Source: an uncultured Bacilli bacterium (lineage in GTDB: Bacteria; Bacillota_I; Bacilli_A; RF39; UBA660). Taken from it: a stretch of 31,300 nt of DNA. A program made the position numbers and the translations under genes. A model generated the notes under the pieces. It was not told the origin of the DNA, searched no databases, and saw nothing but the letters and a program-made list of their open reading frames with translations. Positions within the stretch are counted from its first letter, which is position 1; every line of letters starts with the position of its first letter. Shown in pieces: positions 1,778-25,644 of the stretch. The stretch spans positions 1 to 31,300 of the forward strand of contig CANRNO010000010.1 of the NCBI GenBank assembly GCA_947632065.1, read 5' to 3'.

Positions 1778-2128
1778 TTAATTTTTTGGTTTGAATATAA
1801 CTGCAAATATAAATGAAAAAATTATTGCAGAGGTTATTCCTGATGCTGTTAGATCAAACATTCCCATTACTATACCTAATGGTCCCATTGTTGATGCTTT
1901 AGCAAGTGCTCCATGAATTAATAGATGTCCAAAACTTGTTATAGGAACCATTGCCCCTCCACCTACTACTTCTACTATTTTGTCATATATACTAAAAGTA
2001 TCTAAAGCACTTCCTATTACTACAAAAATACTTGTTATATGTCCTGGTGTTAATTTTGTATTATCAAGAATAATTTGAGCAAGAGCACATATTGCACCCG
2101 CAAATAAAAATGAATTAATTAATAACAT
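1778..2128 (-). CDS. spoVAE: Stage V sporulation protein AE (SpoVAEB-type membrane protein)
   Basis: 116 aa with LTPGHITS...VPITSFGH...SGITSAIIF..FKPK, matching the SpoVAE family. Overlaps spoVAD by 1 nt. Confidence 0.9.
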   Translation of the reverse strand: MLLINSFLFAGAICALAQIILDNTKLTPGHITSIFVVIGSALDTFSIYDKIVEVVGGGAMVPITSFGHLLIHGALAKASTMGPLGIVMGMFDLTASGITSAIIFSFIFAVIFKPKN

Positions 2129-3123
2129 TATTTAGCCTCCAAACTTACTGCATGAGCAATACTTAAAATGTTTTCTTTTTGGAATACTGAAGTTGGTGAA
2201 AACAATGCTCCTGTTGTAATTAAAAGAACTCTTTTTAATTTCTTTTCTTTTAATAATTTATAAACATAACTATAATTTACTAGAGCACTACATACTGGTC
2301 CACTTCCTCCTGCCATTACTTCTGTTTGATTTTCTAAATCATAAAGCATTACTCCACAATCGTTATAATTTTTTGTTGTTAGTTTTATTTTATATTCTTC
2401 TTTTAAATAATCTGTTAAAATTTGTTTACCAAAGTATCCTAAATCTCCTGTTAAAATTAAATCATAATCATCTATAGTTCTATTTAAATCATTTAGATGT
2501 GTTATTAGAGTATCTGCAGCTGCTGGTGCCATGACTGCTCCCATATTATTTGGATCAGTTTGTGCAAAATCTACTATTCTTCCAATGGTTGCACTTTCTA
2601 CTTTAATATCACTTTTTTTATTTGTAAGAAGAATAGATGCTCCACCTGTTGAAGTAAAGGTTGCAGTTTTAGGCTTTGGTCCTCCATATTCTGTTGGATT
2701 TCTAAATTGTTTTTCACTTGTCATATTATGTGAACTAGTAGAAGATATACAATTATTTATTTTTTTACCATCTATTAAACAAGATCCTATTATTACTCCT
2801 TCCATACTGGTTGCACAGGCATTATAAAGACCTAAAAATGGTGTATTCATCCAACTTGATGCGTATGTTGATGAGGTAATTTGATTATTTAAGTCGCCTG
2901 ATAAAACTAATTCTATATCATCTTTTGTTAGATTTGTTTTTTTAAGTAAAATTTGAATACTATCTTTTAACATTCTTACTTCTGCTTTTTCTATAGTTTT
3001 CTCATTACAATATAAATCATCATATTTTTTATCAAAGTATTTTTTTAATGGTCCATTTGCTTCATATGTATTGGTAACTGTAGCAGTATTTTCAACATAA
3101 ACATTATTAAACTTAAAGGTCAT
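2128..3123 (-). CDS. spoVAD: Stage V sporulation protein AD (thiolase-fold DPA-binding protein)
   Basis: 331 aa of the right size, sitting between spoVAC and spoVAE. Thiolase-like motifs are present (NACATS, GGSGPVCSA). Confidence 0.9.
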   Translation of the reverse strand: MTFKFNNVYVENTATVTNTYEANGPLKKYFDKKYDDLYCNEKTIEKAEVRMLKDSIQILLKKTNLTKDDIELVLSGDLNNQITSSTYASSWMNTPFLGLYNACATSMEGVIIGSCLIDGKKINNCISSTSSHNMTSEKQFRNPTEYGGPKPKTATFTSTGGASILLTNKKSDIKVESATIGRIVDFAQTDPNNMGAVMAPAAADTLITHLNDLNRTIDDYDLILTGDLGYFGKQILTDYLKEEYKIKLTTKNYNDCGVMLYDLENQTEVMAGGSGPVCSALVNYSYVYKLLKEKKLKRVLLITTGALFSPTSVFQKENILSIAHAVSLEAK

Positions 3124-3127
3124 TTTA

Positions 3128-3565
3128 TCACTCTCCTATTAATAGTCTAATCATTCCAAAAAACCATGCTGATACTATTCCATATATAATAACAGTTCCA
3201 GCAAGTTTAAACATATTAGCACCTATTCCTGTTACTAATCCTTCTTTTCTATAATCAAGTGCAGCACTTGTCATTGAATGTGCAAAACCTGTTATGGGAA
3301 TTAAAAGACCACATCTTGCATAATTTACTAATTTATCAAAAAATCCTAAGGCTGTACATAAAGATGCAATAAATATTAAAGTAATCATCATATAAGAAGA
3401 AGCTTCACTTCTAGAAATGTGAAATTTATAACAAAATAACTCTATTAATCCTTCTCCTATTACTCCAATTAATCCACCTATTAAAAATGCCATAAAAGCA
3501 TTTAAAGTACGATTTTCATTTGCTTTATACTTATTTACTATTTTTTCGTATTTTTCATTTTTCAT
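3128..3565 (-). CDS. spoVAC: Stage V sporulation protein AC
   Basis: Membrane protein with AFLIGGLIGVIGEG and PITGFAHSM motifs. I prefer the start at MKNEKYE (ATG 3565) because it has a GGTGA SD. The track start at 3613 lies inside the upstream terminator hairpin. Confidence 0.88.
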   Translation of the reverse strand: MKNEKYEKIVNKYKANENRTLNAFMAFLIGGLIGVIGEGLIELFCYKFHISRSEASSYMMITLIFIASLCTALGFFDKLVNYARCGLLIPITGFAHSMTSAALDYRKEGLVTGIGANMFKLAGTVIIYGIVSAWFFGMIRLLIGE

Positions 3566-3579
3566 ATAATCACCAGTAT

Positions 3580-3608
3580 TATTATGAAATAAATAAAAAA
3601 AAATATTC
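3580..3608 (-). promoter_or_regulatory. Possible forespore (sigma-G/F type) promoter GAATA-17-CATAATA
   Basis: On the minus strand, GAATA (3608-3604), a 17-nt spacer, then CATAATA (3586-3580). This fits the GHATR-N17/18-CATxxTA consensus. The predicted transcription start would fall almost on the SD, so confidence is low. Confidence 0.3.
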
Positions 3609-3625
3609 CACAATTTTGTGGAATA
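3591..3625 (-). terminator. Rho-independent terminator after sigF
   Basis: Stem tattccaca / tgtggaata (3604-3625) with a 4-nt loop, followed on the minus strand by a long T-run (plus-strand A-run 3591-3603). Confidence 0.7.
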
Positions 3626-3646
3626 CTTTAATTATAAGTTTTTTTA

Positions 3647-4291
3647 CTAAAGTCTTGTTTTTAATTTTTGAAGAATCTTTTTTTCTTTTCTTGATACTTG
3701 AACTTGATTCATTCCTAAGCTATCAGATATCTCACTTTGTGTTAGATCTTTATAATATCTATCATAAATAATAGATTTTTCTTCATTTGATAGTTTATTT
3801 AACTCTACTTTTAAATCTATAATATCACTATTTAAATTTTTATCTTCTGTTTTTATATAGTTATATAAATTCATTGATGATTCTTCTTGATTATTATCTA
3901 AACTTTCTATTGGACTTGAAATAACTTTAGCCTCTTCTATTAGTTTTTCATCTATTTCTAAGAAGTTTGATAATTCTTTATCTGTAGGTATTCTTTGTAA
4001 TTTTTGACTTAGTACTTCTCTTGCTTTTTCTAATGATTTATTTAACTTCAATAATTCTTTATTTACTTTTATACCACTATTTTCTCTTATATATGAACAT
4101 ACTTCTCCTTTAATATAGAAATATGCAAAAGTAGAAAATTTTGTATCATAATTTTTATTATATTTTGTATATGCTTTAGCGAGCCCTAACATACCTGCTT
4201 GATATAAGTCTTCTTTATCATAATAATTTATATATCTTTTTATAATATCATATACTAATCTTTCATAATCTAATATGCTGTTCATTATCAT
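3647..4291 (-). CDS. sigF: Sporulation sigma factor, sigma-F-like (SigB/F/G family)
   Basis: 214 aa. Region 4 RYYKDLTQSEISDSLGMNQVQVSRKEKKILQKLK is nearly identical in pattern to B. subtilis SigF. Region 2 has FSTFAYFYIKGEV. The gene sits between a STAS gene and the spoVA genes, as in the canonical spoIIA-spoVA synteny. Confidence 0.8.
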   Translation of the reverse strand: MIMNSILDYERLVYDIIKRYINYYDKEDLYQAGMLGLAKAYTKYNKNYDTKFSTFAYFYIKGEVCSYIRENSGIKVNKELLKLNKSLEKAREVLSQKLQRIPTDKELSNFLEIDEKLIEEAKVISSPIESLDNNQEESSMNLYNYIKTEDKNLNSDIIDLKVELNKLSNEEKSIIYDRYYKDLTQSEISDSLGMNQVQVSRKEKKILQKLKTRL

Positions 4292-6472: not shown

Positions 6473-8596
6473 CTATTCTCCTTCATTGCTGAATTTTTCT
6501 TTTTCTTGTTCTTCTTGTTTTTTGAATAAATCAAATACTATTATATCATCTGATACAGCTAGTAGTTTTTCTGTATACTTATTATTCTTTTCGATATAAT
6601 TTTCATCTATTGCTTCTTCTTTTAATGCTAGATATTGTCCTTTTTGACTATTATAATAGATATTATTTGTTACCCAGTTACCATTAGGGAATACTACTAT
6701 GTTATTTTCTTTTATATTAAATATATCGTGTCCTAGAGCATATTTATTTGAGAATCCTAACATATTTCCTAAAGTAGGCATTACATCATACATACCCATA
6801 ACATTAGTTATTTCTTGATTTAATTTTGTACCTTTCATATCAGGTGTCCAGATAATGAATGGTACTTTACGGTTTAATTCATATTGATAATCATCAAAGT
6901 TGAAATATCCTTCATCTTCTTCTGTTTTTACTTTATCTGTTGCGGCATCATAATTATATAATTTATTATAATCTTTTTTAGGAAGTCTTCCATCATGATC
7001 TCCATAAAGAACAAATACTGTATTATCCATTAAACCATTATCTTCTAATGCTTGAATAAATTCTCCTAAAGCTTCATCTGCATAATGGATTGATTTAAAG
7101 TAATTTCCAAGTTTAGTTCCTTCCATGTATGGAGATGGTATATCTTCTCCTGTTTCTTCATCTTTTAGACCACCATTTTTAATATCTACATCATATTCAC
7201 CATATTTTTCAACATCTGAGAATGGTGTATGATTAGTTAGTGTTATTAACAGACCATAGAATGGTTTTCCTTTATTATTTAATTTCTTCATTTTTTCTAT
7301 TGATTGTTTGAAGAATTCTTTATCAGAAATACCAAGACCAATGGTATTTTCTTTTGTTACTTTATAAGTTTCTTTACTATAGAATTTATCATATCCTAAG
7401 TTCTTATGCATAGTACGTCTATTCCAGAAGTCAGCATTATTACCATGCATACTAAATGTATAATATCCTTTATCTTTTAAGAATTGTGGAGTTGCATAAT
7501 ATTTTCTATCAAAATAACTTACAAATACTGTTCCATTTTGTGCTGGCATTAGTGAAGTATTAAATGTGAATTCTGCATCACTACTTGTTCCTACACTAAC
7601 TTGTGAGTAAAAGTTTGAAAAATACATTCCTTCACTTGCAAGTTTATTTAATGTTGGTGTTGTTTCTATATCATTAAACTTTCTATTGATAACATTATTT
7701 TGAATACTTTCTCCATGAATAACAATTACATTTTTACCTTCAAAAATATTTGAATATTCATTTTTTGGTTCTTCTTTTTTATCTTTAAAGTATTCTTTAA
7801 ATTCTTTCATAGCATTATCATATCCAAACATGGAATTTATTTTAGGTTGAAGTGATACGAAAGCATCATTAAATTGATAAATATATATTCCAAATCTCAT
7901 AACTATATATTCACGATTCCATTGTTTAGCAAAACGTCCAACTTCTAGGGATGATAATGTTACAGTGAAAATGACTGCTAGAAGGCATCCTACTACTAAA
8001 GTAGAAAGTGCTTTCTTTTTTCTTTCTTTTTTTAAATCTATTTTATTATAGTAGTGTTTCTTTTTTAATTTATAATGGACAAATATTAAAATAAGAGGTC
8101 CTAAAACATATAATAAATCTTTTAATTCAAATACATTTTCTGTTACTGCATCTCCTACTTCTCCTATATATTGAGTAAGAGATAACATAGAAACTGATGC
8201 AAATGATGTATAGAATGTATAATATATTGAATTTATCATACATATTGCAGTAAAGAAAACATCAAATATGAAATAATATATAAATCTATATTTTGGTTTA
8301 AATAAATAACCAAAGGATCCAACTATAGTTAAGACTGCAACGTCTGCTAAGATAGGTTTAAAAGCTAAATAGTTTTCTGTTGTATGCATAGTAAAAAATC
8401 TAAGCATAGTAGAATTAATTACGCAAGTTATTACAAAAGTAAGAAATAATACATTATTTTTTAGATATTTTTTAATTAAATGTTCTTTTTTTACCACTTT
8501 AAAAAAATGTATAGTTTTCTTTTTTAAATCTACCATAGTTTTTTTTATTTCAAATTTATTATTGTTTTTTTCTTTTTTCTCTTTTCTTAATATCAT
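6473..8596 (-). CDS. ltaS: Lipoteichoic acid synthase family protein (LtaS-type sulfatase)
   Basis: 707 aa with about five N-terminal TM helices plus an extracellular sulfatase-like domain (GTSSDAEF, HTPF, YGDHDG). Confidence 0.85.
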   Translation of the reverse strand: MILRKEKKEKNNNKFEIKKTMVDLKKKTIHFFKVVKKEHLIKKYLKNNVLFLTFVITCVINSTMLRFFTMHTTENYLAFKPILADVAVLTIVGSFGYLFKPKYRFIYYFIFDVFFTAICMINSIYYTFYTSFASVSMLSLTQYIGEVGDAVTENVFELKDLLYVLGPLILIFVHYKLKKKHYYNKIDLKKERKKKALSTLVVGCLLAVIFTVTLSSLEVGRFAKQWNREYIVMRFGIYIYQFNDAFVSLQPKINSMFGYDNAMKEFKEYFKDKKEEPKNEYSNIFEGKNVIVIHGESIQNNVINRKFNDIETTPTLNKLASEGMYFSNFYSQVSVGTSSDAEFTFNTSLMPAQNGTVFVSYFDRKYYATPQFLKDKGYYTFSMHGNNADFWNRRTMHKNLGYDKFYSKETYKVTKENTIGLGISDKEFFKQSIEKMKKLNNKGKPFYGLLITLTNHTPFSDVEKYGEYDVDIKNGGLKDEETGEDIPSPYMEGTKLGNYFKSIHYADEALGEFIQALEDNGLMDNTVFVLYGDHDGRLPKKDYNKLYNYDAATDKVKTEEDEGYFNFDDYQYELNRKVPFIIWTPDMKGTKLNQEITNVMGMYDVMPTLGNMLGFSNKYALGHDIFNIKENNIVVFPNGNWVTNNIYYNSQKGQYLALKEEAIDENYIEKNNKYTEKLLAVSDDIIVFDLFKKQEEQEKEKFSNEGE

Positions 8597-9522: not shown

Positions 9523-11559
9523 TTATTTAAAGTCTTCTTTATTAGTAATCATTTCTAACGTTGCTTCGTTTATTGCATCATCTATTGTTTTTATTTCATC
9601 TTCAATCATACTATATCCGACTCCAGCTCCAAATTCATGTGGTAAGTTTTTAAATTCTTTACTAAGTTTTTTAACATATGTAGATATTTGCTTATCATTA
9701 TATCCAACTAAGTAAATTAAAAATTCATTACCATCTGTTCTAATAATTTCAGAATTTTCAAGTTGAGTATTTACTAAGACACCTGCGGCTTTAACAATAA
9801 GTTGATCTCCTTCTTCATGACCATAGTTATCATTTACATATTTAACATTATTTAAGTCTGCGATAACAATTGCTTGAGGGAATACTTTTGAATCTTCCCA
9901 TTCTTGTATTTTAGCATTTAAATAGTTTCTATTTTTTAAAGAAGTAAGCATATCAGTATATTTATGTCTATCATCAATTCTGATTTTTTTCTTTGTCTTC
10001 TTTCTCTTAAATATAAAGTATAAAATTATAAATATTAATATTGGCACAAATATAATTAATAATATATCTATATATATTTCAGAGAATGATTTATCTTTTA
10101 AGAAACTAGAATCTAAATTTTCTATTCCACTATTTTTATAATTATAATAAGAATTAGTATTCATTATATAATTAAATAAATTATAGAATGATTTATCACT
10201 CTTTTTAACCATGAATTTATAATCATTCATCATAGTATCAGTAAATAAAACTGTATAATCAGAGAATAATTTTTCTCTATAATAGTTATATACTTCTTTA
10301 TCTAATACTAATATTTTATTTTTAGCTTTTTTAGTTAATTCTTCTACATTATTTACTGTTTTTATGTTAGCTCTAGAATTAGTTTTTACATATTGATATA
10401 AAGAATTTCCTTTAATCATTAATATATCTTCGCCTTTTAGACTTTCAAAGGAATTGATAATATGATTATCTTTACTTCTTCCTAGAATAACATAATCTTC
10501 TATAAATGTTGAACGTGTTGATAAATATTTAGAACTTTTTACTCCATAATAATCGAAATAAAAATCTATTTCACCTTTATTAATAGCTTTTTGTAATGAC
10601 TTTTTATTTTTGTATTTTTTATATTCAAATTCAATATTAGTAAGTCTAGATATTCTATCTACATATTCTGCAGCAATACCTTTTAAATGACCATTTTTAA
10701 ATACTTCATATGGACTGTTCTCTATATATCCATAAACGTATACTTTAGATGTTAAATCATTTTTTTCTTTAGCACTTAATTTCTTTTCTTTAACATAATA
10801 ATCTAAGTATGCATCATTATATTCACTGACATATTTTGTAGCTTTCCATTTTTTATAATATTTACGAACTATATTATTTAGTTTATCTTCTCCACCTAGT
10901 GTTAAAACAATACGTTTTCTTAGTTCAGTAAAATAATAATTAATTGAATATTTACTATTATCAATAGTACGATTTAAATACATAATATTTGGAACTATTA
11001 TCATGTTTACTTCATTATTATCTAGTGCATTAAATAAAGAATCTATATCTTCATAAGTTTTAAAAGATAAATTATTTCCTGATTTTAGATAATATCTTAC
11101 GTCATCACTTTCTTTTTCGAAAACTCCAAATGTTAAGTTTTTCATATCAGAAATATGATTTATTCTTTGATAATCTTTTCCGATTGCTACATAGTAATCT
11201 TCAAATAATAGTAAATCATTATTTGTTAATTTTTCATTGTTACCTAATATACGAAAACTAAAAGATGAAGAGTTTGGTTTTTCATCTTTTAAATAAGATA
11301 TTTTATTAAAATCTAATCCTATATCTTTTTTAAAATCATTTAAGAATGTAAAGAAAACTCCTTTTCCATTTAGTCCATATAATGGGTAATCATTAATAAC
11401 TTCAAAGTCAACTGATTCTCTTCCATTATCTTGAATCCATTTTTTCTCAGTAACAGTTAATGTAGTTGTGCTATCTTCTTTATTGTAATATCTATAGACT
11501 CCAACAAAGGCAATAATTGCGATTATGGCTGGAATCATGATAACTAATTTCTTTTTCAT
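9523..11559 (-). CDS. Membrane sensor: tandem periplasmic solute-binding-like domains, TM helix and a degenerate GGDEF domain
   Basis: 678 aa. N-terminal anchor, about 480 aa extracytoplasmic, a TM helix (ILLIIFVPILIFIILYFIF), then LTSLKNRNYL...ADLNNVKYVNDNYGHEEGDQ...RTDGNEF. The motif at 9721-9735 reads DGNEF instead of GGDEF. Confidence 0.75.
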   Translation of the reverse strand: MKKKLVIMIPAIIAIIAFVGVYRYYNKEDSTTTLTVTEKKWIQDNGRESVDFEVINDYPLYGLNGKGVFFTFLNDFKKDIGLDFNKISYLKDEKPNSSSFSFRILGNNEKLTNNDLLLFEDYYVAIGKDYQRINHISDMKNLTFGVFEKESDDVRYYLKSGNNLSFKTYEDIDSLFNALDNNEVNMIIVPNIMYLNRTIDNSKYSINYYFTELRKRIVLTLGGEDKLNNIVRKYYKKWKATKYVSEYNDAYLDYYVKEKKLSAKEKNDLTSKVYVYGYIENSPYEVFKNGHLKGIAAEYVDRISRLTNIEFEYKKYKNKKSLQKAINKGEIDFYFDYYGVKSSKYLSTRSTFIEDYVILGRSKDNHIINSFESLKGEDILMIKGNSLYQYVKTNSRANIKTVNNVEELTKKAKNKILVLDKEVYNYYREKLFSDYTVLFTDTMMNDYKFMVKKSDKSFYNLFNYIMNTNSYYNYKNSGIENLDSSFLKDKSFSEIYIDILLIIFVPILIFIILYFIFKRKKTKKKIRIDDRHKYTDMLTSLKNRNYLNAKIQEWEDSKVFPQAIVIADLNNVKYVNDNYGHEEGDQLIVKAAGVLVNTQLENSEIIRTDGNEFLIYLVGYNDKQISTYVKKLSKEFKNLPHEFGAGVGYSMIEDEIKTIDDAINEATLEMITNKEDFK

Positions 11560-15280: not shown

Positions 15281-15305
15281 TGGAGTCCCTCCTTTTACAT
15301 ATGAT

Positions 15306-15334
15306 ATTATACCATAAATAGATTTTATTCTAAA
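15306..15334 (-). promoter_or_regulatory. Promoter of gatCAB (TTTAGA-17-TATAAT with TG extension)
   Basis: Minus strand has TTTAGA (15334-15329), a 17-nt spacer, then TGgTATAAT (15314-15306). Confidence 0.55.
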
Positions 15335-15399
15335 GAAAAATAATTATTGTGTATGAAATAATTTATAAAAATGTTATATTTATTATAGAGGTGATTATT

Positions 15400-16242
15400 A
15401 TGTATAAGAAAATAGATAAAGATAATGAAATATTTAAAAATGAACATTCTCCTTTTTTTAAGGATAGATTTATGTTTAATATAATGCTTAAAAATTTAGA
15501 TAGTGAAGATCTTGAACTTTATAGTGATGAAGAAAACTATATAATATGCAGAGGAAGTAAAGATTATCCAACTTGGATATGGACTAAAGATAATTTTGAT
15601 AAGACTAAACTATTTGAGATAGAAGAACTTATGGATATGTATTTAACTGATAAAGAAAAGGATAAATTTACTTGTAAAAAAGAATTATATGATTTATTAG
15701 TTTATGATAATTTTTCTAAATTAAATAAGGAAGATTATTTTGAAATGGGATTTTTACTTTGCAAGACAGCACAAAAACCTGAAGAATGTGATGCTTTTCT
15801 TTCTAAGCCTACTATAGATGATAAAAAGACTTTAATTAAATATTGGAAAGATGATACTGATGAAATGAATGGTGTTGATTCCATTACTAAAGAAGAGGCT
15901 GAAAGAGATGTAGATAGATTTATAAATAGTGATAGTTTTTATGTTCTTAGAAACAAAGATAATAAAATTGTTTGTATGGCAAGTTATAGTGTTAAATATG
16001 GACAAGCAAAAATAAATGATGTGTATACTCCTGATGATGAAAGAAGAAAAGGGTATGCTGTTAATTTAATTTATTTAATGACAAAAGAGTTATTAGATAA
16101 AGGTTTGACTCCACTACTTTATACTGATTATGAATATAAAGCATCTAATGATGCTTATGAAAAAGCTGGATATGAAAGACAAGGAAAGCTTATTAATTTT
16201 AGTTGTAGTAAAGAAAAGAATAAAGGTTCTATTTCTCTTTAA
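15400..16242 (+). CDS. GNAT-family N-acetyltransferase
   Basis: C-terminal acetyl-CoA-binding-like block DDERRKGYAVNLIYLM...NDAYEKAGYE. Start preferred at ATG 15400 (AGAGGTGA SD). The track start at 15349 is a GTG without an SD. Confidence 0.7.
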   Translation: MYKKIDKDNEIFKNEHSPFFKDRFMFNIMLKNLDSEDLELYSDEENYIICRGSKDYPTWIWTKDNFDKTKLFEIEELMDMYLTDKEKDKFTCKKELYDLLVYDNFSKLNKEDYFEMGFLLCKTAQKPEECDAFLSKPTIDDKKTLIKYWKDDTDEMNGVDSITKEEAERDVDRFINSDSFYVLRNKDNKIVCMASYSVKYGQAKINDVYTPDDERRKGYAVNLIYLMTKELLDKGLTPLLYTDYEYKASNDAYEKAGYERQGKLINFSCSKEKNKGSISL

Positions 16243-16288
16243 AAATTTTCTGATTGAAAATCAATTTTATTTATGATAATATAGATAT

Positions 16289-16385
16289 ATCAGATATAGA
16301 TTACATAAAATAAAAATGGAAGGCTCAAGTTATTGAGACTTACCTAATAAAGTTTTGGTTTGCACTCAATTTGAGTGCTTTTTTT
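16289..16385 (+). ncRNA. Putative antitoxin sRNA, copy 1
   Basis: Promoter TTGAAA (16254-16259), 17 nt, then TGaTAATAT (16274-16282). Terminator gcactca/tgagtgc (16362-16378) plus T7 (16379-16385). It ends 1 nt before the convergent ORF's stop codon. There is no conserved ORF. Confidence 0.6.
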
Positions 16386-16386
16386 A

Positions 16387-16455
16387 TTAATTATAAATAA
16401 TCAATAAAATAATGACTACTATAAGTAATACAACTAATAAATCTTTCTTACTCAT
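16387..16455 (-). CDS. 22-aa hydrophobic peptide, putative type I toxin, copy 1 (MSKKDLLVVLLIVVIILLIIYN)
   Basis: ATG at 16455 preceded by AAAAGGAGGTGA SD. Charged N-terminus followed by an 18-residue all-hydrophobic helix. Convergent with sRNA 1. Confidence 0.6.
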   Translation of the reverse strand: MSKKDLLVVLLIVVIILLIIYN

Positions 16456-16608
16456 AGTATCACCTCCTTTTAAACCCCCTCTTTGGACTTTAAAAGGCAA
16501 ACGCTCATTTGAACCTTCATTTATTATATACTAGAAAAAATTAGAATTTTTGCACTTTTTATAAATTTACTGATTGAAAACTGTTTTTATTTATGGTAAT
16601 ATGAATAT

Positions 16609-16709
16609 ATCAGATGTAGATTACATAAAATAAAAAAGGAAGGCTCAAAGTCATGTTGAGCGCTTACCGTATGTTGTGTATGCACTCAAGATGTGAGTGC
16701 TTTTGTTTT
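16609..16709 (+). ncRNA. Putative antitoxin sRNA, copy 2
   Basis: TTGAAA (16574-16579), 17 nt, then TGgTAATAT (16594-16602). Terminator hairpin 16682-16700 followed by TTTTGTTTT. The T-run overlaps the stop codon of the convergent ORF. Confidence 0.6.
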
Positions 16710-16776
16710 ACTTAAATACAATTAATAAAACAATAATAATTAGGAGAAAGAAAATTAGTATTTCGTTTTTTCTCAT
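16708..16776 (-). CDS. 22-aa hydrophobic peptide, putative type I toxin, copy 2 (MRKNEILIFFLLIIIVLLIVFK)
   Basis: ATG at 16776 with AAAGGGG SD 8 nt upstream. Possible TATAAT at 16836-16831. Confidence 0.6.
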   Translation of the reverse strand: MRKNEILIFFLLIIIVLLIVFK

Positions 16777-16931
16777 ATTATCAGCCCCTTTCTATTTGAA
16801 ATAGGGCAAGCGCTCAAAATTGGGTCTCCAATTATATAATAGAAAATTTCTATTTATTAGCGCTTTTTTATAAAAAAAATTAAAAAAATTTACTGATTGA
16901 AAATCAGTTTTATTTATGATAATATGGATAT

Positions 16932-17029
16932 ATCAGATGTAGACTACATAAAATAAAAAGGAAGGCTCAAAGTCATGTTGAGCGCTTGCCTTGTTGGTGT
17001 TGCACTCAAGATGTGAGTGCTTTTGTTTT
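16932..17029 (+). ncRNA. Putative antitoxin sRNA, copy 3
   Basis: TTGAAA (16897-16902), 17 nt, then TGaTAATAT (16917-16925). Terminator hairpin 17002-17020 followed by TTTTGTTTT. Confidence 0.6.
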
Positions 17030-17096
17030 ATCTAAATACAATTAATAAAACAATAATAATTAGAAGAAAGAAAATTAGTATTTCGTTTTTTCTCAT
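17028..17096 (-). CDS. 22-aa hydrophobic peptide, putative type I toxin, copy 3 (MRKNEILIFFLLIIIVLLIVFR)
   Basis: Differs from copy 2 by one residue (K to R at the C-terminus). Same SD and layout. Confidence 0.6.
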   Translation of the reverse strand: MRKNEILIFFLLIIIVLLIVFR

Positions 17097-17212
17097 ATTA
17101 TCAGCCCCTTTCTATTTGAAATAGGGCAAGCGCTCAAATTGGGCCTCCAATTATATATAATAGAAAACTTCAATTTATTAGCGCTTTTTTATGAAAAAAC
17201 TTAGATATTTTA

Positions 17213-18625
17213 TTAATCTAAGTTATCAATCATATCTATTAGAGTTTGTAATAGTCTTTTACAAGAATCTAAATATAAAGTTTCATTTGGAGTATGAACA
17301 TCTTTAATATCGGGTCCTAAAGATATCATATCTAAATGTGGTAGTTTCTCATAAATCATTCCACATTCAACTCCAGCATGTATAGCACAAATATTAGGAT
17401 TATCATCATGATATTTTTTATATGAATTAATATATACCTCTTGTAATTTAGAATTAGGATTATACTTCCATCCTGGATATTCTCCATATTCTTCTATAGA
17501 AAATTCTAAATTATGTGCTAAGGTATTATTTTCTTTTTGATATAATTTTCTTTTATTGTCATCACTTGATCTTAATGATTCTTTTATAATACAAACATCT
17601 TTATCTATTTTTACTACTCCGATATTTCCTGATGTTTCTACAAGATCTTTTACATCTTTACTATATTCAATAACATTTTGTTTTAAATTATTTATAAGAG
17701 TTAGAATATTTTTACTTTCTTTATTACTAATTGCTTGATAATTATTATTCTCTACTTTTTTGCAAGATACTTTCATATTAGAATCTTCTTTTGTAATTTT
17801 AATATTAGATAATTTTTCTTTTACTATATCATTTACTAATTTAGTAGTTGTGAAAACTACTTTAGTACTATTTGCGATAGCGTTATCTTTGTTACCACCT
17901 ATAAAAGAAATTATTTTTATATCGTCTATATCTTTTAAAATATTTGCCACTAAAAGATTAGAATTTATTCTTCCTTTATTAATATCTACTCCTGAATGTC
18001 CTCCATAAAGATTAGAAATGGAAAGTTCATATACCTCATTATCTATAGGATATCTTTCTAATTCTTTTTTATATTCTATAGTTATTCCTCCTGCACATCC
18101 TACTATAGCAGTATTTTCTTCTTCTCCATCTAAGTTAATTAGATAACTTGCATTTATATCAGAATAATCAAAACATCTTGCACCATTCATTCCTATTTCT
18201 TCTTCTGTTGTGAATAGACATTCAATATCAGGATGTTTTATATCTTCATCATCTAAAAGTAACATTAGAAAAGCTACTCCTATTCCATCATCTGCTCCTA
18301 ATGTTGTATCTTTTGCATGTAATGTATTTGTTTTTTCAATTATTTCTATTTTATCTTTTTTAAAGTCATGATTACTATTTTCTTTTTTTTCACAAACCAT
18401 ATCAGTATGTGCTTGAAAAAGAATAGTTTTTTTATTTTCATAACCTTTACTTGCTTTCTTTTTTATTAATACATTATTAAACTTATCTTTTCTATAATAT
18501 AAATTTCTTTTATTTGCGAAAGTACATAAAAATTCTGCGATTTTTTCTTCTTCTTTTGAATTTCTAGGTATTTGAGAAATTGTTTTGAAATATTCTAATA
18601 TTTTATTATATTTTTCGTCTATCAT
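17213..18625 (-). CDS. pepD: Aminoacyl-histidine (Xaa-His) dipeptidase, M20 family
   Basis: 470 aa with HTDMV, GADDGIG, TTEEEIGMNGA and NLDGEE motifs characteristic of PepD. Confidence 0.85.
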   Translation of the reverse strand: MIDEKYNKILEYFKTISQIPRNSKEEEKIAEFLCTFANKRNLYYRKDKFNNVLIKKKASKGYENKKTILFQAHTDMVCEKKENSNHDFKKDKIEIIEKTNTLHAKDTTLGADDGIGVAFLMLLLDDEDIKHPDIECLFTTEEEIGMNGARCFDYSDINASYLINLDGEEENTAIVGCAGGITIEYKKELERYPIDNEVYELSISNLYGGHSGVDINKGRINSNLLVANILKDIDDIKIISFIGGNKDNAIANSTKVVFTTTKLVNDIVKEKLSNIKITKEDSNMKVSCKKVENNNYQAISNKESKNILTLINNLKQNVIEYSKDVKDLVETSGNIGVVKIDKDVCIIKESLRSSDDNKRKLYQKENNTLAHNLEFSIEEYGEYPGWKYNPNSKLQEVYINSYKKYHDDNPNICAIHAGVECGMIYEKLPHLDMISLGPDIKDVHTPNETLYLDSCKRLLQTLIDMIDNLD

Positions 18626-21694: not shown

Positions 21695-21714
<20 letters not shown>

Positions 21715-22828
21715 CTTTTCTCCTTGATTCTTTTTGATAAAAGTATCTTTCTACTAATCTTTGCATCTTCCTTTTAGATCCATAATTAAATCCATATTGA
21801 TATGTTGAGATACTTGAAAAAGCACTTTGTAGAGATATTCTATTATGGTCATATAAATATCTTACTTCTTTGATTCTTCTTTTAACTCTTCTTCTGGTAT
21901 CACCAGCAACATTTATTATTGTTTTATTATTTATTATTCTGAATCTATATCCACAAAATGTAAATCCTTCTTTAATATTAGTAATATTTGTTTTCTTTTT
22001 ATTGACTTTTAATTTATATTTTTCTTCTAATATTTTTATTATTTCATCTCTTCTTTGTTTTAATTCATCTAAATCATCCCAAAGTATTAAGAAATCATCC
22101 ATATATCTTATAAAATATTTCATATGAAAGTCATGTACTATTTTATGATCTAATTCATTTAAGTAATATACTGCGAGAAATTGACTTGTCATATTTCCGA
22201 TTGGAAGTCCTTTATCTTTTTCATAGAGAGGAATTGCTTTTATTTCATCTAGTCTTTCATTTGATCTAGAAAGTTCTAGATTTTTTAAATTTTCTATTTG
22301 TTTATTTATATAAGGATAATTGGTACTGTTTATAACTACTTCTACCATTTTAAATTCATCTTCATCTAATTTATCTCTAATCATATCTTTTAATACTTTA
22401 TGGTCTATACTATAAAAGTATTTAGAAATATCTAATTTTAAAGCATAACAATTCTTTTTTCTTTTGAATTTTTCTAAATATTTTTTTAATAAGTCAATAG
22501 AATAATCTCTTCCCATATTTTTTCTAGTTGCGGCATTTCTCATATCTAAATATCTTTCTAGTTTAGGCATTAGTATATATCTTGCGACATAATGATTGAT
22601 AAGTTTATCTTTTATATTTAAAGACATTATAATTCTATATTTAGGATATTTTATAATAAATATATTATATTTCATAAAGTGATAGAGATTATTATTTATT
22701 ACATAACAAATTTTTGTGATATTTACTGATAAGTATCTTTCAAATCTATATATTTTTCTTTTATTTTTAGTGTTCTTTTTTATTTCATTATTAAATAAAT
22801 CTAGAATAGTTTCATAATTAACTTGCAT
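21695..22828 (-). CDS. Reverse transcriptase, diversity-generating retroelement (DGR) type
   Basis: 377 aa. RT motifs PKYRII, LDISKYFYSIDH, LPIGNMTSQFLAVYYLNELDH (22181-22201, the I/LGxxxSQ hallmark of DGR RTs) and YMDD (22094-22105). No maturase or endonuclease extension. Confidence 0.85.
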
Positions 22829-23159
22829 CGCTTTTTACCCAACCATAAATCATTTTTTGCATTTCTTCTAGTTGTCTACATCCTTTGTTAAGTTTTTTTT
22901 CACTTATGCATAATTTATGATAACTTTCTTCTAAATAAAAATCTATCATACTTATTTTTGAAAGCATTAATTTTTGATTATCTAGTTTTTCTTCTATTAA
23001 GTTAGTAATAAATATTAATTCTAATAAGTCATAACTTGTATTTATTATTCTATCTTTTAATATAAATTCTTTTCTGGGATAATTTATAATTATTTCGTTT
23101 ATAAAAACAATAAATTCTTTACATTTTGTGATTAGTTTAAATCTATCATTTTTATTCAT
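22818..23159 (-). CDS. avd: Avd-like accessory variability determinant (four-helix-bundle, 23S-rRNA-IVS protein family)
   Basis: 113 aa, predicted all-helical. FINEIIINYPRKEFILKDRIINTSYDLLELIFITN parallels the Bordetella phage bAvd ..YPIAQSIPRK.. segment. Overlaps the RT start by 11 nt. Confidence 0.7.
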   Translation of the reverse strand: MNKNDRFKLITKCKEFIVFINEIIINYPRKEFILKDRIINTSYDLLELIFITNLIEEKLDNQKLMLSKISMIDFYLEESYHKLCISEKKLNKGCRQLEEMQKMIYGWVKSDAS

Positions 23160-23529
23160 ATATTACCTCATTGATGTATTCCATTATTTTTTTTATTTTA
23201 TAACTTGGAAGACTTTTTATTTTTTCAATTAAATCTTCTTCTCTTTTTTTATCTTCACAAGATTTAATTCCTCTTTCTAGATACTTTTGATATTGATTAA
23301 CATTTTTATAATCTTTTTTTTCTACTTCTTCATCTTTTTCTATTATCACATAGCTTATCTTTTTATCCTCTAGAGTATTTTGGACTTTTCCTAAAACATT
23401 TATTGGAAATCCAACTCTTCCTTTACTTATTTTGTAATTTGCGATTGCATGAAGTACATAGGCATCTTTTTCGTATGCAGTATAGAATTTACCTTGTCTT
23501 CTAATCTTTACATGCTCTTTCATAAACAC
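23152..23529 (-). CDS. MutS domain I-like small protein (MSL-type DGR accessory)
   Basis: 125 aa. RRQGKFYTAYEKDAYVL....GRVGFPINVLGKVQNTLEDKKISYVIIEK aligns by eye with the MutS mismatch-binding domain (GDFYELF..DA...AGIP.....YL.KL...G..VAICEQ). Overlaps the avd start by 8 nt. Confidence 0.6.
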   Translation of the reverse strand: MFMKEHVKIRRQGKFYTAYEKDAYVLHAIANYKISKGRVGFPINVLGKVQNTLEDKKISYVIIEKDEEVEKKDYKNVNQYQKYLERGIKSCEDKKREEDLIEKIKSLPSYKIKKIMEYINEVIYE

Positions 23530-23584
23530 TTTCTCTCTTTCTTAGTATTTTACTACTTGATTATTTAAAATCCTTACTACGATA

Positions 23585-23651
23585 CATTAAATAAAACAAA
23601 ATAAGACTAATGATCTTTGGTGCGAATATGACCTAGATCAATAGTCTTATT
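23585..23651 (-). terminator. Long hairpin plus T-tract downstream of the surface-protein gene
   Basis: 23600-23616 pairs with 23635-23651, 17 bp with one A-A mismatch and an 18-nt relatively GC-rich loop. On the minus strand it is followed by TTGTTTTATTT. Confidence 0.55.
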
Positions 23652-23657
23652 AATAAT

Positions 23658-25583
23658 TTATTTTATATTTGTATTTGTAGTCATAATTGTTGATAAGTTA
23701 CCATTCTCACTTTTATCTTTTACTCCATTATCTTTTATTTTTAATGAAAGTCTTCCTTTAACTGAGAATCCTTTTATAGAGAAAATGTATTCTTTTCCAT
23801 TAGTAATGTTTTTGGTAGTAATTAGTCTTTTAGCATCAGGTGTTACTTTTGCAGTATCTACTAATATTTCTAAATCATCTTCTGTTAGATTTTTACTAAT
23901 AGATTTACTTGTATCTGTACAATCTATTACTACTTCTACTTCATCATCAACACTTATATTCTGTGGTGTTATACTTTTAATGTAGCATATAGGATTAGTT
24001 GTATCGACTGCTTTGACATAATATGTAGTATCATCACTTATTTTTATTGTTCTTTTTTCTTTAGTTCCAGTTGTTTCATTTTTATCTAAGGTAAAGAATT
24101 TATCATTATATCCAGGTTGTGAATTAATAAGTGGTAGAATTATACTACAACTATCTTTATTTTGATTTATTATACAACTATCTTTTTCTTTTGCGATACT
24201 TTTTACTCCATCTGTTTTTTCGTAATTTATTACTACTTTTCTATAAGTTAGAGCATAATATGTTTTGCTTTCACTTACAGAAATGGTTGCTCCTGGTAGG
24301 TCTCCACTGACTGCTTTATCATAAGTTGACCAATAACCAGTGTATCCATCTTCTGCATCTATTGTTGGTAGAGTAATATCACAGCTATTTGCACCAACAG
24401 CTTTACTACAAGTTAATGTATCGTTACTGCCAATCGAACTCACCTTCGCACCTTTGATAAGTTTGACCGTTACTACTTCATTACTACTTACGATAACAGT
24501 TCTTGCAACACCAGCGATGTTATTATCATTATCTTCTACTACATATTTTATTAAGTATTCTCCATCTTGTTTAGTATTTACATTACCTAATGTTACAATT
24601 TTTTCAGTTAAATCATTAGAATTAGAATCTGTTGCGACTGCGCCAAGTTCTTCATATTCTTCATCTTGATTAACATAAACGATTGCTGAACCGTTTAATT
24701 TTATAGTGGGTGGTATTATACCTTTTTTATGTACGTTTACTGTTCTTACTGCGACTGCGGTATGCCCACTATCATCTGTTACCTCATACTTAATATAATA
24801 CACTCCAATTTTAGAAGTGTCAACATTTTGAACTTCTTCTAATTTTTCTCCATCATAAAATTCATATGTTTTTTTAACATTTTCTACATTAATAGTCTTA
24901 TCATCATCTTGGATACTTTCTATTCCTTCATCAATGAATTCTTCTCCTTGTTCAATGTTTATATCTTGTTTTCCTTTTAGTTTGATAATTGGTATTTGGT
25001 CTACATGTTTTTCAAAATTAAGATTATCTTGAATTGCTTCTACTACTATTTTTGATCTATATTCTTTGTTTTTACCTTCGTTCCCTACATTTTCATCTAT
25101 CCAAAGTTTAATACTATAATTTATTTTTTTACCGTCTCTTAAATTTTTATCTTGTACTAATATAAAGTTTGGTACTGATGATAAAAGGGCAGGTTTACTC
25201 CAAGTTCCATCTTCTTCTTTAATACTATATTTTATTTGACTTGCGGTTAGTCTTTTATTTGTATCTATAGTTTGATCTTCTTCTAATCTTATTAGATAGT
25301 TTGCAGAAACATCTCCTGTATTAGATATAGTAAAGTCATATGATTTACTGTTCATTCCCTCTTCGTCTATTACTGGTTTAGCATTATCAAGAGATATTGC
25401 ACTTCCTTCTGAAAAATCAATATTAAAATTTCCTACTACTACTGTTTGAACATCATTAGTTTCTTCGCTTACCGCTAAAAGACCATAACTTGTAGCAAGA
25501 AATGTTATAGTAATTATTGAAATAAGACCTAAAAGAAGAAATGTGTTTTTAATATTTCCTATTTGTTCATTTCTTTTTTCCAT
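23658..25583 (-). CDS. Large secreted or anchored surface protein with Ig-like (DUF5011-type) and Listeria/Bacteroides-type repeats
   Basis: N-terminal anchor FLLLGLISIITITFLATSYGLLA. A TasA/camelysin-like N-terminal module (tentative). Two DUF5011-like repeats (..IKL.G....V..G..Y.E.G..A.D......YYIKY.V.D..G....A.RTV.V). Two GY.G.W../GY..KFF repeats. Start preferred at MEKRNE (AAGAGGG SD); the track start is 25604. Confidence 0.7.
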   Translation of the reverse strand: MEKRNEQIGNIKNTFLLLGLISIITITFLATSYGLLAVSEETNDVQTVVVGNFNIDFSEGSAISLDNAKPVIDEEGMNSKSYDFTISNTGDVSANYLIRLEEDQTIDTNKRLTASQIKYSIKEEDGTWSKPALLSSVPNFILVQDKNLRDGKKINYSIKLWIDENVGNEGKNKEYRSKIVVEAIQDNLNFEKHVDQIPIIKLKGKQDINIEQGEEFIDEGIESIQDDDKTINVENVKKTYEFYDGEKLEEVQNVDTSKIGVYYIKYEVTDDSGHTAVAVRTVNVHKKGIIPPTIKLNGSAIVYVNQDEEYEELGAVATDSNSNDLTEKIVTLGNVNTKQDGEYLIKYVVEDNDNNIAGVARTVIVSSNEVVTVKLIKGAKVSSIGSNDTLTCSKAVGANSCDITLPTIDAEDGYTGYWSTYDKAVSGDLPGATISVSESKTYYALTYRKVVINYEKTDGVKSIAKEKDSCIINQNKDSCSIILPLINSQPGYNDKFFTLDKNETTGTKEKRTIKISDDTTYYVKAVDTTNPICYIKSITPQNISVDDEVEVVIDCTDTSKSISKNLTEDDLEILVDTAKVTPDAKRLITTKNITNGKEYIFSIKGFSVKGRLSLKIKDNGVKDKSENGNLSTIMTTNTNIK

Positions 25584-25644
25584 TTTAATACCCTCTTTTA
25601 TCATTACTAACTTTGGTAAAATTATCCAATTATATTCTATTTTT

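Follow-up and report, generated by a model that had tools for sequence, protein, structure and literature searches.

Type I toxin–antitoxin systems typically combine a toxin of 20–60 aa, an mRNA of 150–400 nt and an antisense RNA of 60–200 nt (T1TAdb, PMC8594479). In Gram-positive bacteria the antisense RNA lies on the 3′ side of the toxin gene (PMC8594479), and all the Gram-positive systems overlap at their 3′ ends (PMC4147584). One of these antitoxins, RatA, represses txpA through RNase III-dependent degradation of the duplex, without being complementary to the open reading frame (ORF) or to the initiation region (PMC4147584). One published criterion in the search for type I toxins is that short transmembrane ORFs are duplicated in tandem between genes (PMC2887945). 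An arrangement of this kind had been proposed for a gap in a 31.3-kb stretch of DNA from an uncultured Bacilli bacterium (contig CANRNO010000010.1, positions 1–31 300; hereafter the window). According to this original prediction, the 970 nt at 16243–17212, between the stop codons of a GNAT acetyltransferase gene (16242) and of pepD (17213), hold three type I-like modules, each with a minus-strand ORF for a 22-aa hydrophobic peptide converging with a plus-strand small RNA (sRNA). The analysis presented here favours, with moderate confidence, the interpretation that the three tandem modules represent a new type I toxin–antitoxin-like family with the usual Gram-positive 3′-overlap design.

The gap was indeed found to be filled by three collinear tandem units of ~320 nt each, whose starts are 320 and 323 nt apart. 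Identity is ~94% between units 2 and 3, and the ORF of unit 1 shares 68% DNA identity with that of unit 2. An orthologous locus (L003) is present in an uncultured Bacilli metagenome-assembled genome (MAG) from rabbit gut, which is 95% identical to the window over 5.2 kb. Comparisons of six copies refer to the three units of the window plus the three of L003.

The minus strand of each unit contains a mini-ORF specifying a peptide of 22 aa, at 16387–16455 (MSKKDLLVVLLIVVIILLIIYN, followed by a stop codon), 16708–16776 (MRKNEILIFFLLIIIVLLIVFK) and 17028–17096 (MRKNEILIFFLLIIIVLLIVFR). All three are preceded by a Shine–Dalgarno (SD) sequence, either AAGGAGG or AAGGGGC, located 7–8 nt ahead of the ATG, and their stop codons abut or overlap the T-tails of plus-strand terminators; the T-tail touches the stop codon and stays out of the ORF. 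These ORFs, their SDs, the contact between stop codon and terminator and the maintenance of the minus-strand frame in all three units had been anticipated, and all were verified. The peptides begin with a short charged N-terminal stretch (MSKKD or MRKNE), continue as a hydrophobic helix of 16–17 residues and end in a single N, K or R; they contain no Trp, and their sole acidic residue is at position 5. When ~110 kb of sequence were scanned on both strands for ATG-initiated ORFs of 18–35 aa with at least 15/16 hydrophobic residues and an SD-like motif, only the three mini-ORFs and their orthologues were returned. The ORFs of units 1 and 2 have the same length and not a single indel at 68% DNA identity, while the flanking non-coding stretches carry several. 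The ORFs of the window and L003 differ at 10 sites, six of them synonymous and four leading to conservative replacements (V8I, V9G, I19V and R22K); since the expected synonymous fraction was 0.22, the changes are biased towards synonymous ones (binomial p = 0.011). Over the whole 970-nt region the divergence between the two loci was 4.9%, compared with ~7.5–11% at the third codon positions of the flanking genes.

These data bear on the idea that the units are tandem repeats without function, or what is left of a mobile insertion, their features having been carried along by duplication rather than by selection. The units were detected in just two lineages, which are closely related, and the segment is an insertion (see below), while the ~94% identity of units 2 and 3 means that the features they share are not independent. 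Nevertheless, unit 1, whose ORF has diverged to 68%, keeps all the signals, the ORF length, the terminators and an SD/anti-SD pair of different sequence; the two genomes differ here by about half as much as the neighbouring genes do at synonymous sites, and the bias of the ORF changes points in the same direction. The remnant explanation is consequently regarded as very improbable.

On the plus strand, the near-consensus promoters with an extended −10 that had been described were recovered at 16254–16282 (−35 box TTGAAA, 17-nt spacer, extended −10 TGATAATAT), 16574–16602 (TTGAAA, 17 nt, TGGTAATAT) and 16897–16925 (TTGAAA, 17 nt, TGATAATAT); all three thus share a TTGAAA-17-TAATAT core with a TG extension. 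The pattern TTGAAA-N14-TGNTAATAT appears three times in the window, always in this gap, while the expectation from shuffled sequences was 0.22, three occurrences being reached in one of 100 shuffles. Terminators formed by GCACTCA..TGAGTGC and a T-run were located at 16362–16385, 16682–16704 and 17002–17024, and terminator-like sites are abundant in the region (five, versus 0.4 expected). The presence of a hairpin and T-run after each promoter therefore agrees with the original prediction, which had put the distance at ~100 nt; the hairpin in fact starts ~80 nt past the −10, and it is the predicted sRNA that measures ~98–101 nt. With its start deduced from the −10, sRNA-1 would span 16289–16386 (~98 nt), sRNA-2 16609–16709 (~101 nt) and sRNA-3 16932–17029 (~98 nt). 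Each would comprise an invariant A/U-rich 5′ tail (..UACAUAAAAUAAAAA), a hairpin 1 with two bulges (GGAAGGCUCAA / UUGAGCGCUUACC; 16318–16344, 16638–16668 and 16960–16990) and a terminator hairpin 2 (16362–16378 plus T7, 16682–16700 and 17002–17020, the latter two also followed by a T-tail). All six copies have the same A-tract and the same hairpin 1 5′ arm. A conserved plus-strand peptide was considered and rejected, since the candidates differ in length from unit to unit (20, 13 and 6 aa) and show no conservation, as had been foreseen for the plus-strand frames.

The GNAT gene lacks a terminator before sRNA-1, the promoter of which begins 12 nt past the GNAT stop codon (16240–16386). Its mRNA is therefore likely to finish at the terminator of sRNA-1, with the predicted antitoxin sequence as its 3′ untranslated region (3′UTR). 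Two further observations concern the plus-strand signals. The sequences AAGCGCT (16809–16815) and AGCGCTT (16859–16865) could form a hairpin with a long loop, followed by T6, which would be a possible second plus-strand terminator insulating the units. In addition, the conserved gatC promoter (TCTATTTATGGTATAATATCATATGTAAAAGGAGG; 15285–15340, minus strand) resembles the promoter and start region of the sRNA (TTTATTTATGGTAATATGAATATATCAGATGTA; 16584–16620, plus strand); this likeness probably reflects the general TRTG-extended −10 consensus of the organism and not homology.

The sole conserved promoter-like element 5′ of the mini-ORFs is TTTTCTA(G/T)TATA(TA)TAAT, which provides candidate −10 boxes (TATAAT) on the minus strand at 16523–16528 (inside the conserved TTTTCTAGTATATAAT), 16831–16836 and 17150–17155. 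Since it lacks a convincing −35, the 5′ ends of the mRNA models are inferred. In units 2 and 3, a conserved TTAGCGCTTTTTT is found just upstream (in the minus sense) of this −10, at 16857–16870 and 17178–17191, with only a weak counterpart in unit 1; the A-tract that it forms on the minus strand could be a UP-like element. Co-transcription with pepD as the only source of mini-ORF mRNA was discarded because pepD has its own weak terminator on the minus strand (CTTAGAT..ATCTAAG plus T6, 17194–17222), which overlaps the pepD stop codon, separates the gene from the modules and occupies the same position in relatives.

Past the complement of hairpin 2, the minus strand reads AUACACAAC or AAACCAAAAC and has no U-tract, so that termination of the minus-strand RNA is not expected there. 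The complement of hairpin 1, on the other hand, forms an interrupted stem of 10–11 bp directly followed by U5–6AU4 (16307–16344, 16627–16668 and 16950–16990). Most likely, the minus-strand mRNA reads through the complement of the sRNA terminator and ends at the hairpin 1 complement, inside the sRNA gene. The resulting models are mRNA 1 (16307–16516, ~210 nt, with SD AAGGAGG within 16453–16469), mRNA 2 (16627–16826, ~200 nt) and mRNA 3 (16950–17145, ~196 nt), all on the minus strand; both ends of mRNA 1 are inferred. Each terminator would then be embedded in the opposite transcript, and the two RNAs would overlap by ~75–80 nt, entirely within the 3′UTR of the mRNA; the predicted overlap stops at the stop codon and excludes the ribosome-binding site. 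The use of the A-tract and the hairpin 1 5′ arm as complement of the minus-strand terminator would also explain why they are invariant in the six copies. This geometry departs from the original prediction, in which the overlap was limited to the terminator. A single bidirectional terminator common to both RNAs, which that proposal implied, was rejected given the missing minus-side U-tract at hairpin 2 and the existence of a separate minus-strand terminator.

The 22-aa ORFs with their 16–17-residue hydrophobic core and the 196–210-nt mRNA models fall within the size ranges of type I systems. The plus-strand signals frame a putative antisense RNA of 98–101 nt, which would cover ~75–80 nt of the mRNA 3′UTR, and the converging units, with each predicted terminator inside the opposite transcript, have the 3′-overlap architecture. 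Among the closest counterparts are txpA/RatA, bsrG/SR4 and bsrE/SR5 of Bacillus subtilis, in which a toxin mRNA and a convergent antisense sRNA also overlap at their 3′ ends; the three systems are situated in accessory or mobile DNA, and in bsrG the ribosome-binding site is held in a stem. TxpA (59 aa), BsrG (38 aa) and BsrE (30 aa) are longer than the 22-aa peptides described here. Neither sequence nor covariance-model similarity to the units was detected, and in the T1TAdb scheme their antisense RNAs overlap the ORF too (PMC8594479), whereas the overlap predicted here consists of two face-to-face terminators and the mRNA 5′UTR carries a copy of an sRNA hairpin arm.

The mRNA models fold much better than shuffled sequences, with z values of −5.4 to −6.7 in the six copies (−5.7, −5.8 and −5.4 for mRNAs 1, 2 and 3 of the window). 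The SD is predicted to be sequestered in a local hairpin with an upstream anti-SD. In unit 1 the anti-SD/SD pair is CCUUUUAAA/UUUAAAAGG (CCUUUU/AAAAGG); units 2 and 3 have GCCCU/GGGGC instead. In these models the SD is ~70–90% paired whether the 3′ end of the mRNA is free, blocked or removed, and the start-codon region pairs with codons 10–17. When the native codons were compared with synonymous recodings, the native sequence folded more stably, with the initiation region more deeply buried, in unit 1 (p ∼ 0.01–0.02) and unit 2 (p ∼ 0.05).

A second feature of the models is a 5′UTR element, UGAGCG(C/U)UUGCC, found on the minus strand at 16496–16507 (UGAGCGUUUGCC), 16805–16816 (UGAGCGCUUGCC) and 17125–17136. 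It repeats the 3′ arm of sRNA hairpin 1, which makes it complementary to the 5′ arm of the terminator in the same mRNA. Complementarity of the 5′ end to the 3′ end covers 13 of 13 nt in unit 3, while in unit 2, where UGAGCGCUUGCC would pair with GGUAAGCGCUCAA, it covers 12 of 13 plus a G–U pair (inverted repeats I6 and I7). The 5′–3′ duplex was stronger than expected from shuffles in unit 2 (p = 0.016) and unit 3 (p < 0.002), the value for unit 1 being p = 0.11. The ensemble probability of the closing helix was 0.74–0.88 in units 2 and 3 of both genomes (0.77 and 0.88 in those of the window), and ranged in unit 1 from 0.40 (W1) to 0.78 (B1). This helix is a predicted fold and received no support from covariation.

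These observations are compatible with the following scheme. The minus strand would produce an mRNA of ~200 nt for the 22-aa peptide, and the plus strand, from a strong promoter, an sRNA of ~100 nt. The mRNA would be intrinsically poorly translatable, with the SD held by the anti-SD in the local hairpin and the start codon paired with codons 10–17, and pairing of the 12–13-nt 5′UTR element with the 5′ arm of the terminator would close it in a manner similar to the 5′–3′ lock of hok or aapA mRNAs. The abundant sRNA would pair with the mRNA 3′UTR through the ~75–80 nt of perfect complementarity, and the long duplex would be cut by a double-strand-specific RNase, as occurs for RatA/txpA and SR4/bsrG, thereby removing the mRNA. 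By analogy with Ibs, Fst, BsrG and TxpA, the peptide is presumed to insert into the membrane and damage it when overproduced.

A bolder formulation goes further. The sRNA and the mRNA 5′UTR element both carry UUGAGCGCUU(A/G)CC, and the two might compete for the same arm of the 3′ terminator, GG(U/C)AAGCGCUCAA, so that binding of the sRNA would open the lock and at the same time mark the mRNA for duplex-specific cleavage. The modules would then form a new type I family whose 22-aa toxins are shorter than any yet suggested for a Firmicute, with an sRNA that mimics an mRNA 5′UTR element, and with a hok/aapA-style lock, known from Gram-negative bacteria, combined with a 3′-overlap antitoxin of the Gram-positive kind. 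This extended version is tentative and, taken as a whole, rather doubtful.

The predicted long-distance closure of the full-length mRNA and the sequestered SD resemble those of hok/Sok and aapA/IsoA (PMC6733600). These are, however, Gram-negative systems in which an activated mRNA, trimmed at its 3′ end, is bound by the antisense RNA in its 5′ part or its ORF, whereas the antisense RNA proposed here would bind the very 3′ element of the closing helix; in addition, their SD is sequestered by a distant 3′ element rather than by a local hairpin. Fst/RNA II (the par system of pAD1) and SprA1/SprA1AS are Gram-positive, with the antisense RNA located 3′ of the toxin gene and off the ORF (PMC8594479), and chromosomal homologues of Fst occur in tandem (PMC2887945). 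Their productive pairing takes place, however, outside the overlap, at the 5′ or initiation region of the toxin mRNA, and no significant counterpart was observed. Additional pairing of the sRNA with non-overlapping mRNA sequences did not exceed that of shuffles (p = 0.03–0.25 for the whole sRNA, 0.05–0.25 for its 5′ part), and a second trans pairing site at the toxin initiation region, in the style of Fst or SprA1, was rejected since the duplex energies were not better than those of shuffled sequences. The Fst/Ldr signature, with a Trp after the helix and a charged C-terminal tail (PMC2887945), is absent from the peptides, and neither Pfam, NCBIfam nor Rfam gave a match. The E. coli Ibs/Sib systems likewise have a very short hydrophobic toxin and tandem copies within one intergenic region (PMC2887945), but Sib is antisense to the whole ibs ORF (PMC8594479), whereas the antisense RNA predicted here stops at the stop codon. 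The host of Ibs/Sib is a Proteobacterium, and neither sequence similarity nor a Pfam match links the two. The Ibs toxin has 18–19 aa.

The original prediction had not recognised the peptide family, and the database searches gave the same outcome. The peptides matched nothing in Pfam, NCBIfam (Fst and Ldr models included, E ≤ 10), PHROGs or PADLOC, and the RNAs gave no Rfam match at the gathering score in the window, the matches to unrelated families at 16150–17300 being at chance level (E > 1). The modules thus do not belong to any curated toxin or antitoxin family. There was a weak, non-significant match to NprX_fam (E = 0.045; 13.6 bits, cut-off 33). The peptides might alternatively be precursors of secreted signalling peptides of the SHP/Rgg or PrgQ/iCF10 type, with the convergent RNA acting as an attenuator similar to Anti-Q. 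Precursors of SHP and of the enterococcal inhibitor peptides have a basic N-terminus and a hydrophobic remainder, features shared by these 22-aa peptides. SHP genes, however, adjoin rgg, and the mature C-terminal peptide starts with a conserved Asp or Glu (PMC3679016). Here the neighbours are pepD and the GNAT gene, no RRNPP or Rgg-type domain appeared among the window ORFs scanned with Pfam, and the sole acidic residue, at position 5, would yield an implausible mature peptide of 18 residues. Nor is a triple tandem with cognate antisense RNAs a feature of SHP, which makes a signalling role highly unlikely.

A different question is whether the peptide needs to be toxic at all. The same RNA architecture could adjust, through a cis-antisense RNA, the level of a small, non-toxic single-pass membrane peptide with a physiological role, for instance as a modulator of a transporter, a sensor or a sporulation protein. 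The sequence evidence for this possibility is identical to that for a toxin, and some tandem candidates were non-toxic when overproduced (Fozo et al., PMC2887945). Even so, three tandem copies in an accessory insertion missing from relatives are less what one expects of a housekeeping regulator than of a module that is selfish or addictive, there is no linked gene for a partner membrane protein, and the several layers of predicted silencing (SD hairpin, start-codon pairing and 5′–3′ closure) are typical of dangerous products. A physiological peptide is accordingly considered unlikely.

Several observations weigh against the type I interpretation. The putative toxin promoter is a conserved TATAAT with no recognisable −35, and a promoter scan of the region did not list it. 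In DNA of 25% GC any open frame on a T-rich strand is prone to specify hydrophobic residues, so that hydrophobicity alone means little. The strongly negative folding z applies to both strands of the same DNA; since the opposite strand would fold well too, the strand was assigned from the signals and the ORF rather than from the fold. The predicted sRNA folds only mildly better than shuffles (z of −1.5 to −2.1), and clean double compensatory changes were seen at none of the base pairs; RNAalifold detected no compensatory pairs among the six sRNAs, whose 5′ arm is invariant and whose alignment is disturbed by indels. Unit 3 failed the synonymous-recoding test for fold and initiation burial, the 5′–3′ helix is weak in unit 1 of the window, and the comparisons draw on the paralogues and on two lineages sharing 95% identity.

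It also counts against the type I interpretation that the sRNA promoter and the 5′ third of the sRNA are the most conserved part of each unit, which would suit a trans-acting sRNA too. The units could then encode three paralogous sRNAs of the Qrr or LhrC kind with an invariant single-stranded 5′ seed, the ORFs being untranslated by-products of A-rich sequence distal to the terminator. The 94-nt block containing the promoter and the sRNA 5′ region is 82–87% identical across unit types, compared with 68% for the ORF, with the promoter and the 5′-most ~40 nt best conserved; the promoters are near-consensus and the terminators canonical, and the toxin promoter is weak on paper. This view does not account for the preservation of ORF frame, length, SD and start codon over 32% DNA divergence, or for the synonymous bias (p = 0.011). 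Moreover, the invariant A-tract and hairpin 1 are equally explained as the complement of the minus-strand terminator, and the 250 nt outside the sRNA are likewise constrained and strongly structured. A set of trans-acting sRNAs is therefore judged quite improbable. The type I interpretation, in contrast, agrees with the features that a sequence can reveal, namely convergent units with their own signals, a conserved short hydrophobic ORF whose changes are biased towards synonymous ones, tandem copies, a structured mRNA with a sequestered SD and a 3′ overlap; what did not hold of the original type I proposal was the geometry given for that overlap.

The modules appear to have reached their present position together with the GNAT gene (15400–16242). 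In two relatives whose PepD is 72–74% identical (L014 and L015), pepD directly precedes gatCAB, with a spacer of ~94 nt in which the gatC promoter and the terminator of pepD are found. An insertion of ~1.85 kb, made up of the GNAT gene and the modules, therefore separates these two elements in the window (15340–17193, boundaries approximate). A T-rich motif (TTTTTTC / TTTTTC) is present at both ends of the insertion and is indistinguishable from chance in such AT-rich DNA. The biological role of the modules is likely to be stabilisation of (or addiction to) the inserted segment, or a response to stress or phages.

In the collections searched, only two lineages, closely related to each other, yielded the units. 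A DNA motif scan of the genome collection, based on conserved sRNA motifs, returned one true orthologous locus (L003) and one chance match. The same motifs gave only four chance matches in the metagenome collection, inside unrelated genes, and two patterns had no match in the viral collection. Nor were matches obtained by blastn of one unit against plasmids and phages, or by phmmer of the 37-aa extended ORF against 1.8 billion protein representatives; an exact look-up of this extended ORF retrieved no record, and nhmmer with the six units found no further copy in the loci compared or in the rest of the window. Homologues of pepD at 69–74% identity have no module at their loci, and the one at 92% identity is of the same lineage as L003. 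Among the GNAT homologues identity falls from 100% to 68%, with differing neighbourhoods. L001, L002 and L017 correspond to the same two lineages as the window and L003, while other relatives have different neighbouring genes and no module.

The MAG is labelled 'Bacilli'. Despite the 25% GC content of its DNA, the host is a spore-forming, wall-bearing Firmicute, since the window carries genes for SpoVAC/SpoVAD, a sporulation-type sigma factor and an LtaS-like enzyme (identified with Pfam). SpoVAD, SpoVAC/SpoVAEB, a sigma-70-family factor, an LtaS-like sulfatase-domain protein and a protein with GGDEF and solute-binding domains are encoded at 2128–4291, 6473–8596 and 9523–11559. If the type I interpretation is right, it would lengthen by one family the still short list of type I systems in Gram-positive bacteria, in an uncultured, spore-forming gut lineage of 25% GC for which no type I system has been described so far. 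The toxin would be unusually short and the layout compact, with interdigitated terminators and a 5′UTR copy of an antitoxin hairpin arm, a convenient setting in which to study the control of a toxin mRNA through pairing at its 3′ end. Such modules would travel with small accessory insertions, here alongside a GNAT acetyltransferase gene. No current concept is challenged, type I systems being known as numerous, fast-evolving and missed by annotation.

Elsewhere in the window, the minus strand at 21695–25604 contains what looks like a diversity-generating retroelement. It includes a reverse transcriptase (RVT_1, 21695–22828), a bAvd-like accessory protein (22818–23159; 30.9 bits, below the Pfam cut-off of 40), an ORF of 125 aa (23152–23529) and a protein of 648 aa with a bacterial surface Ig-like domain (23658–25604). 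A template/variable repeat pair was not found by a repeat search or by short-word blastn. The relative L015 likewise has a reverse transcriptase gene adjoining ligA.

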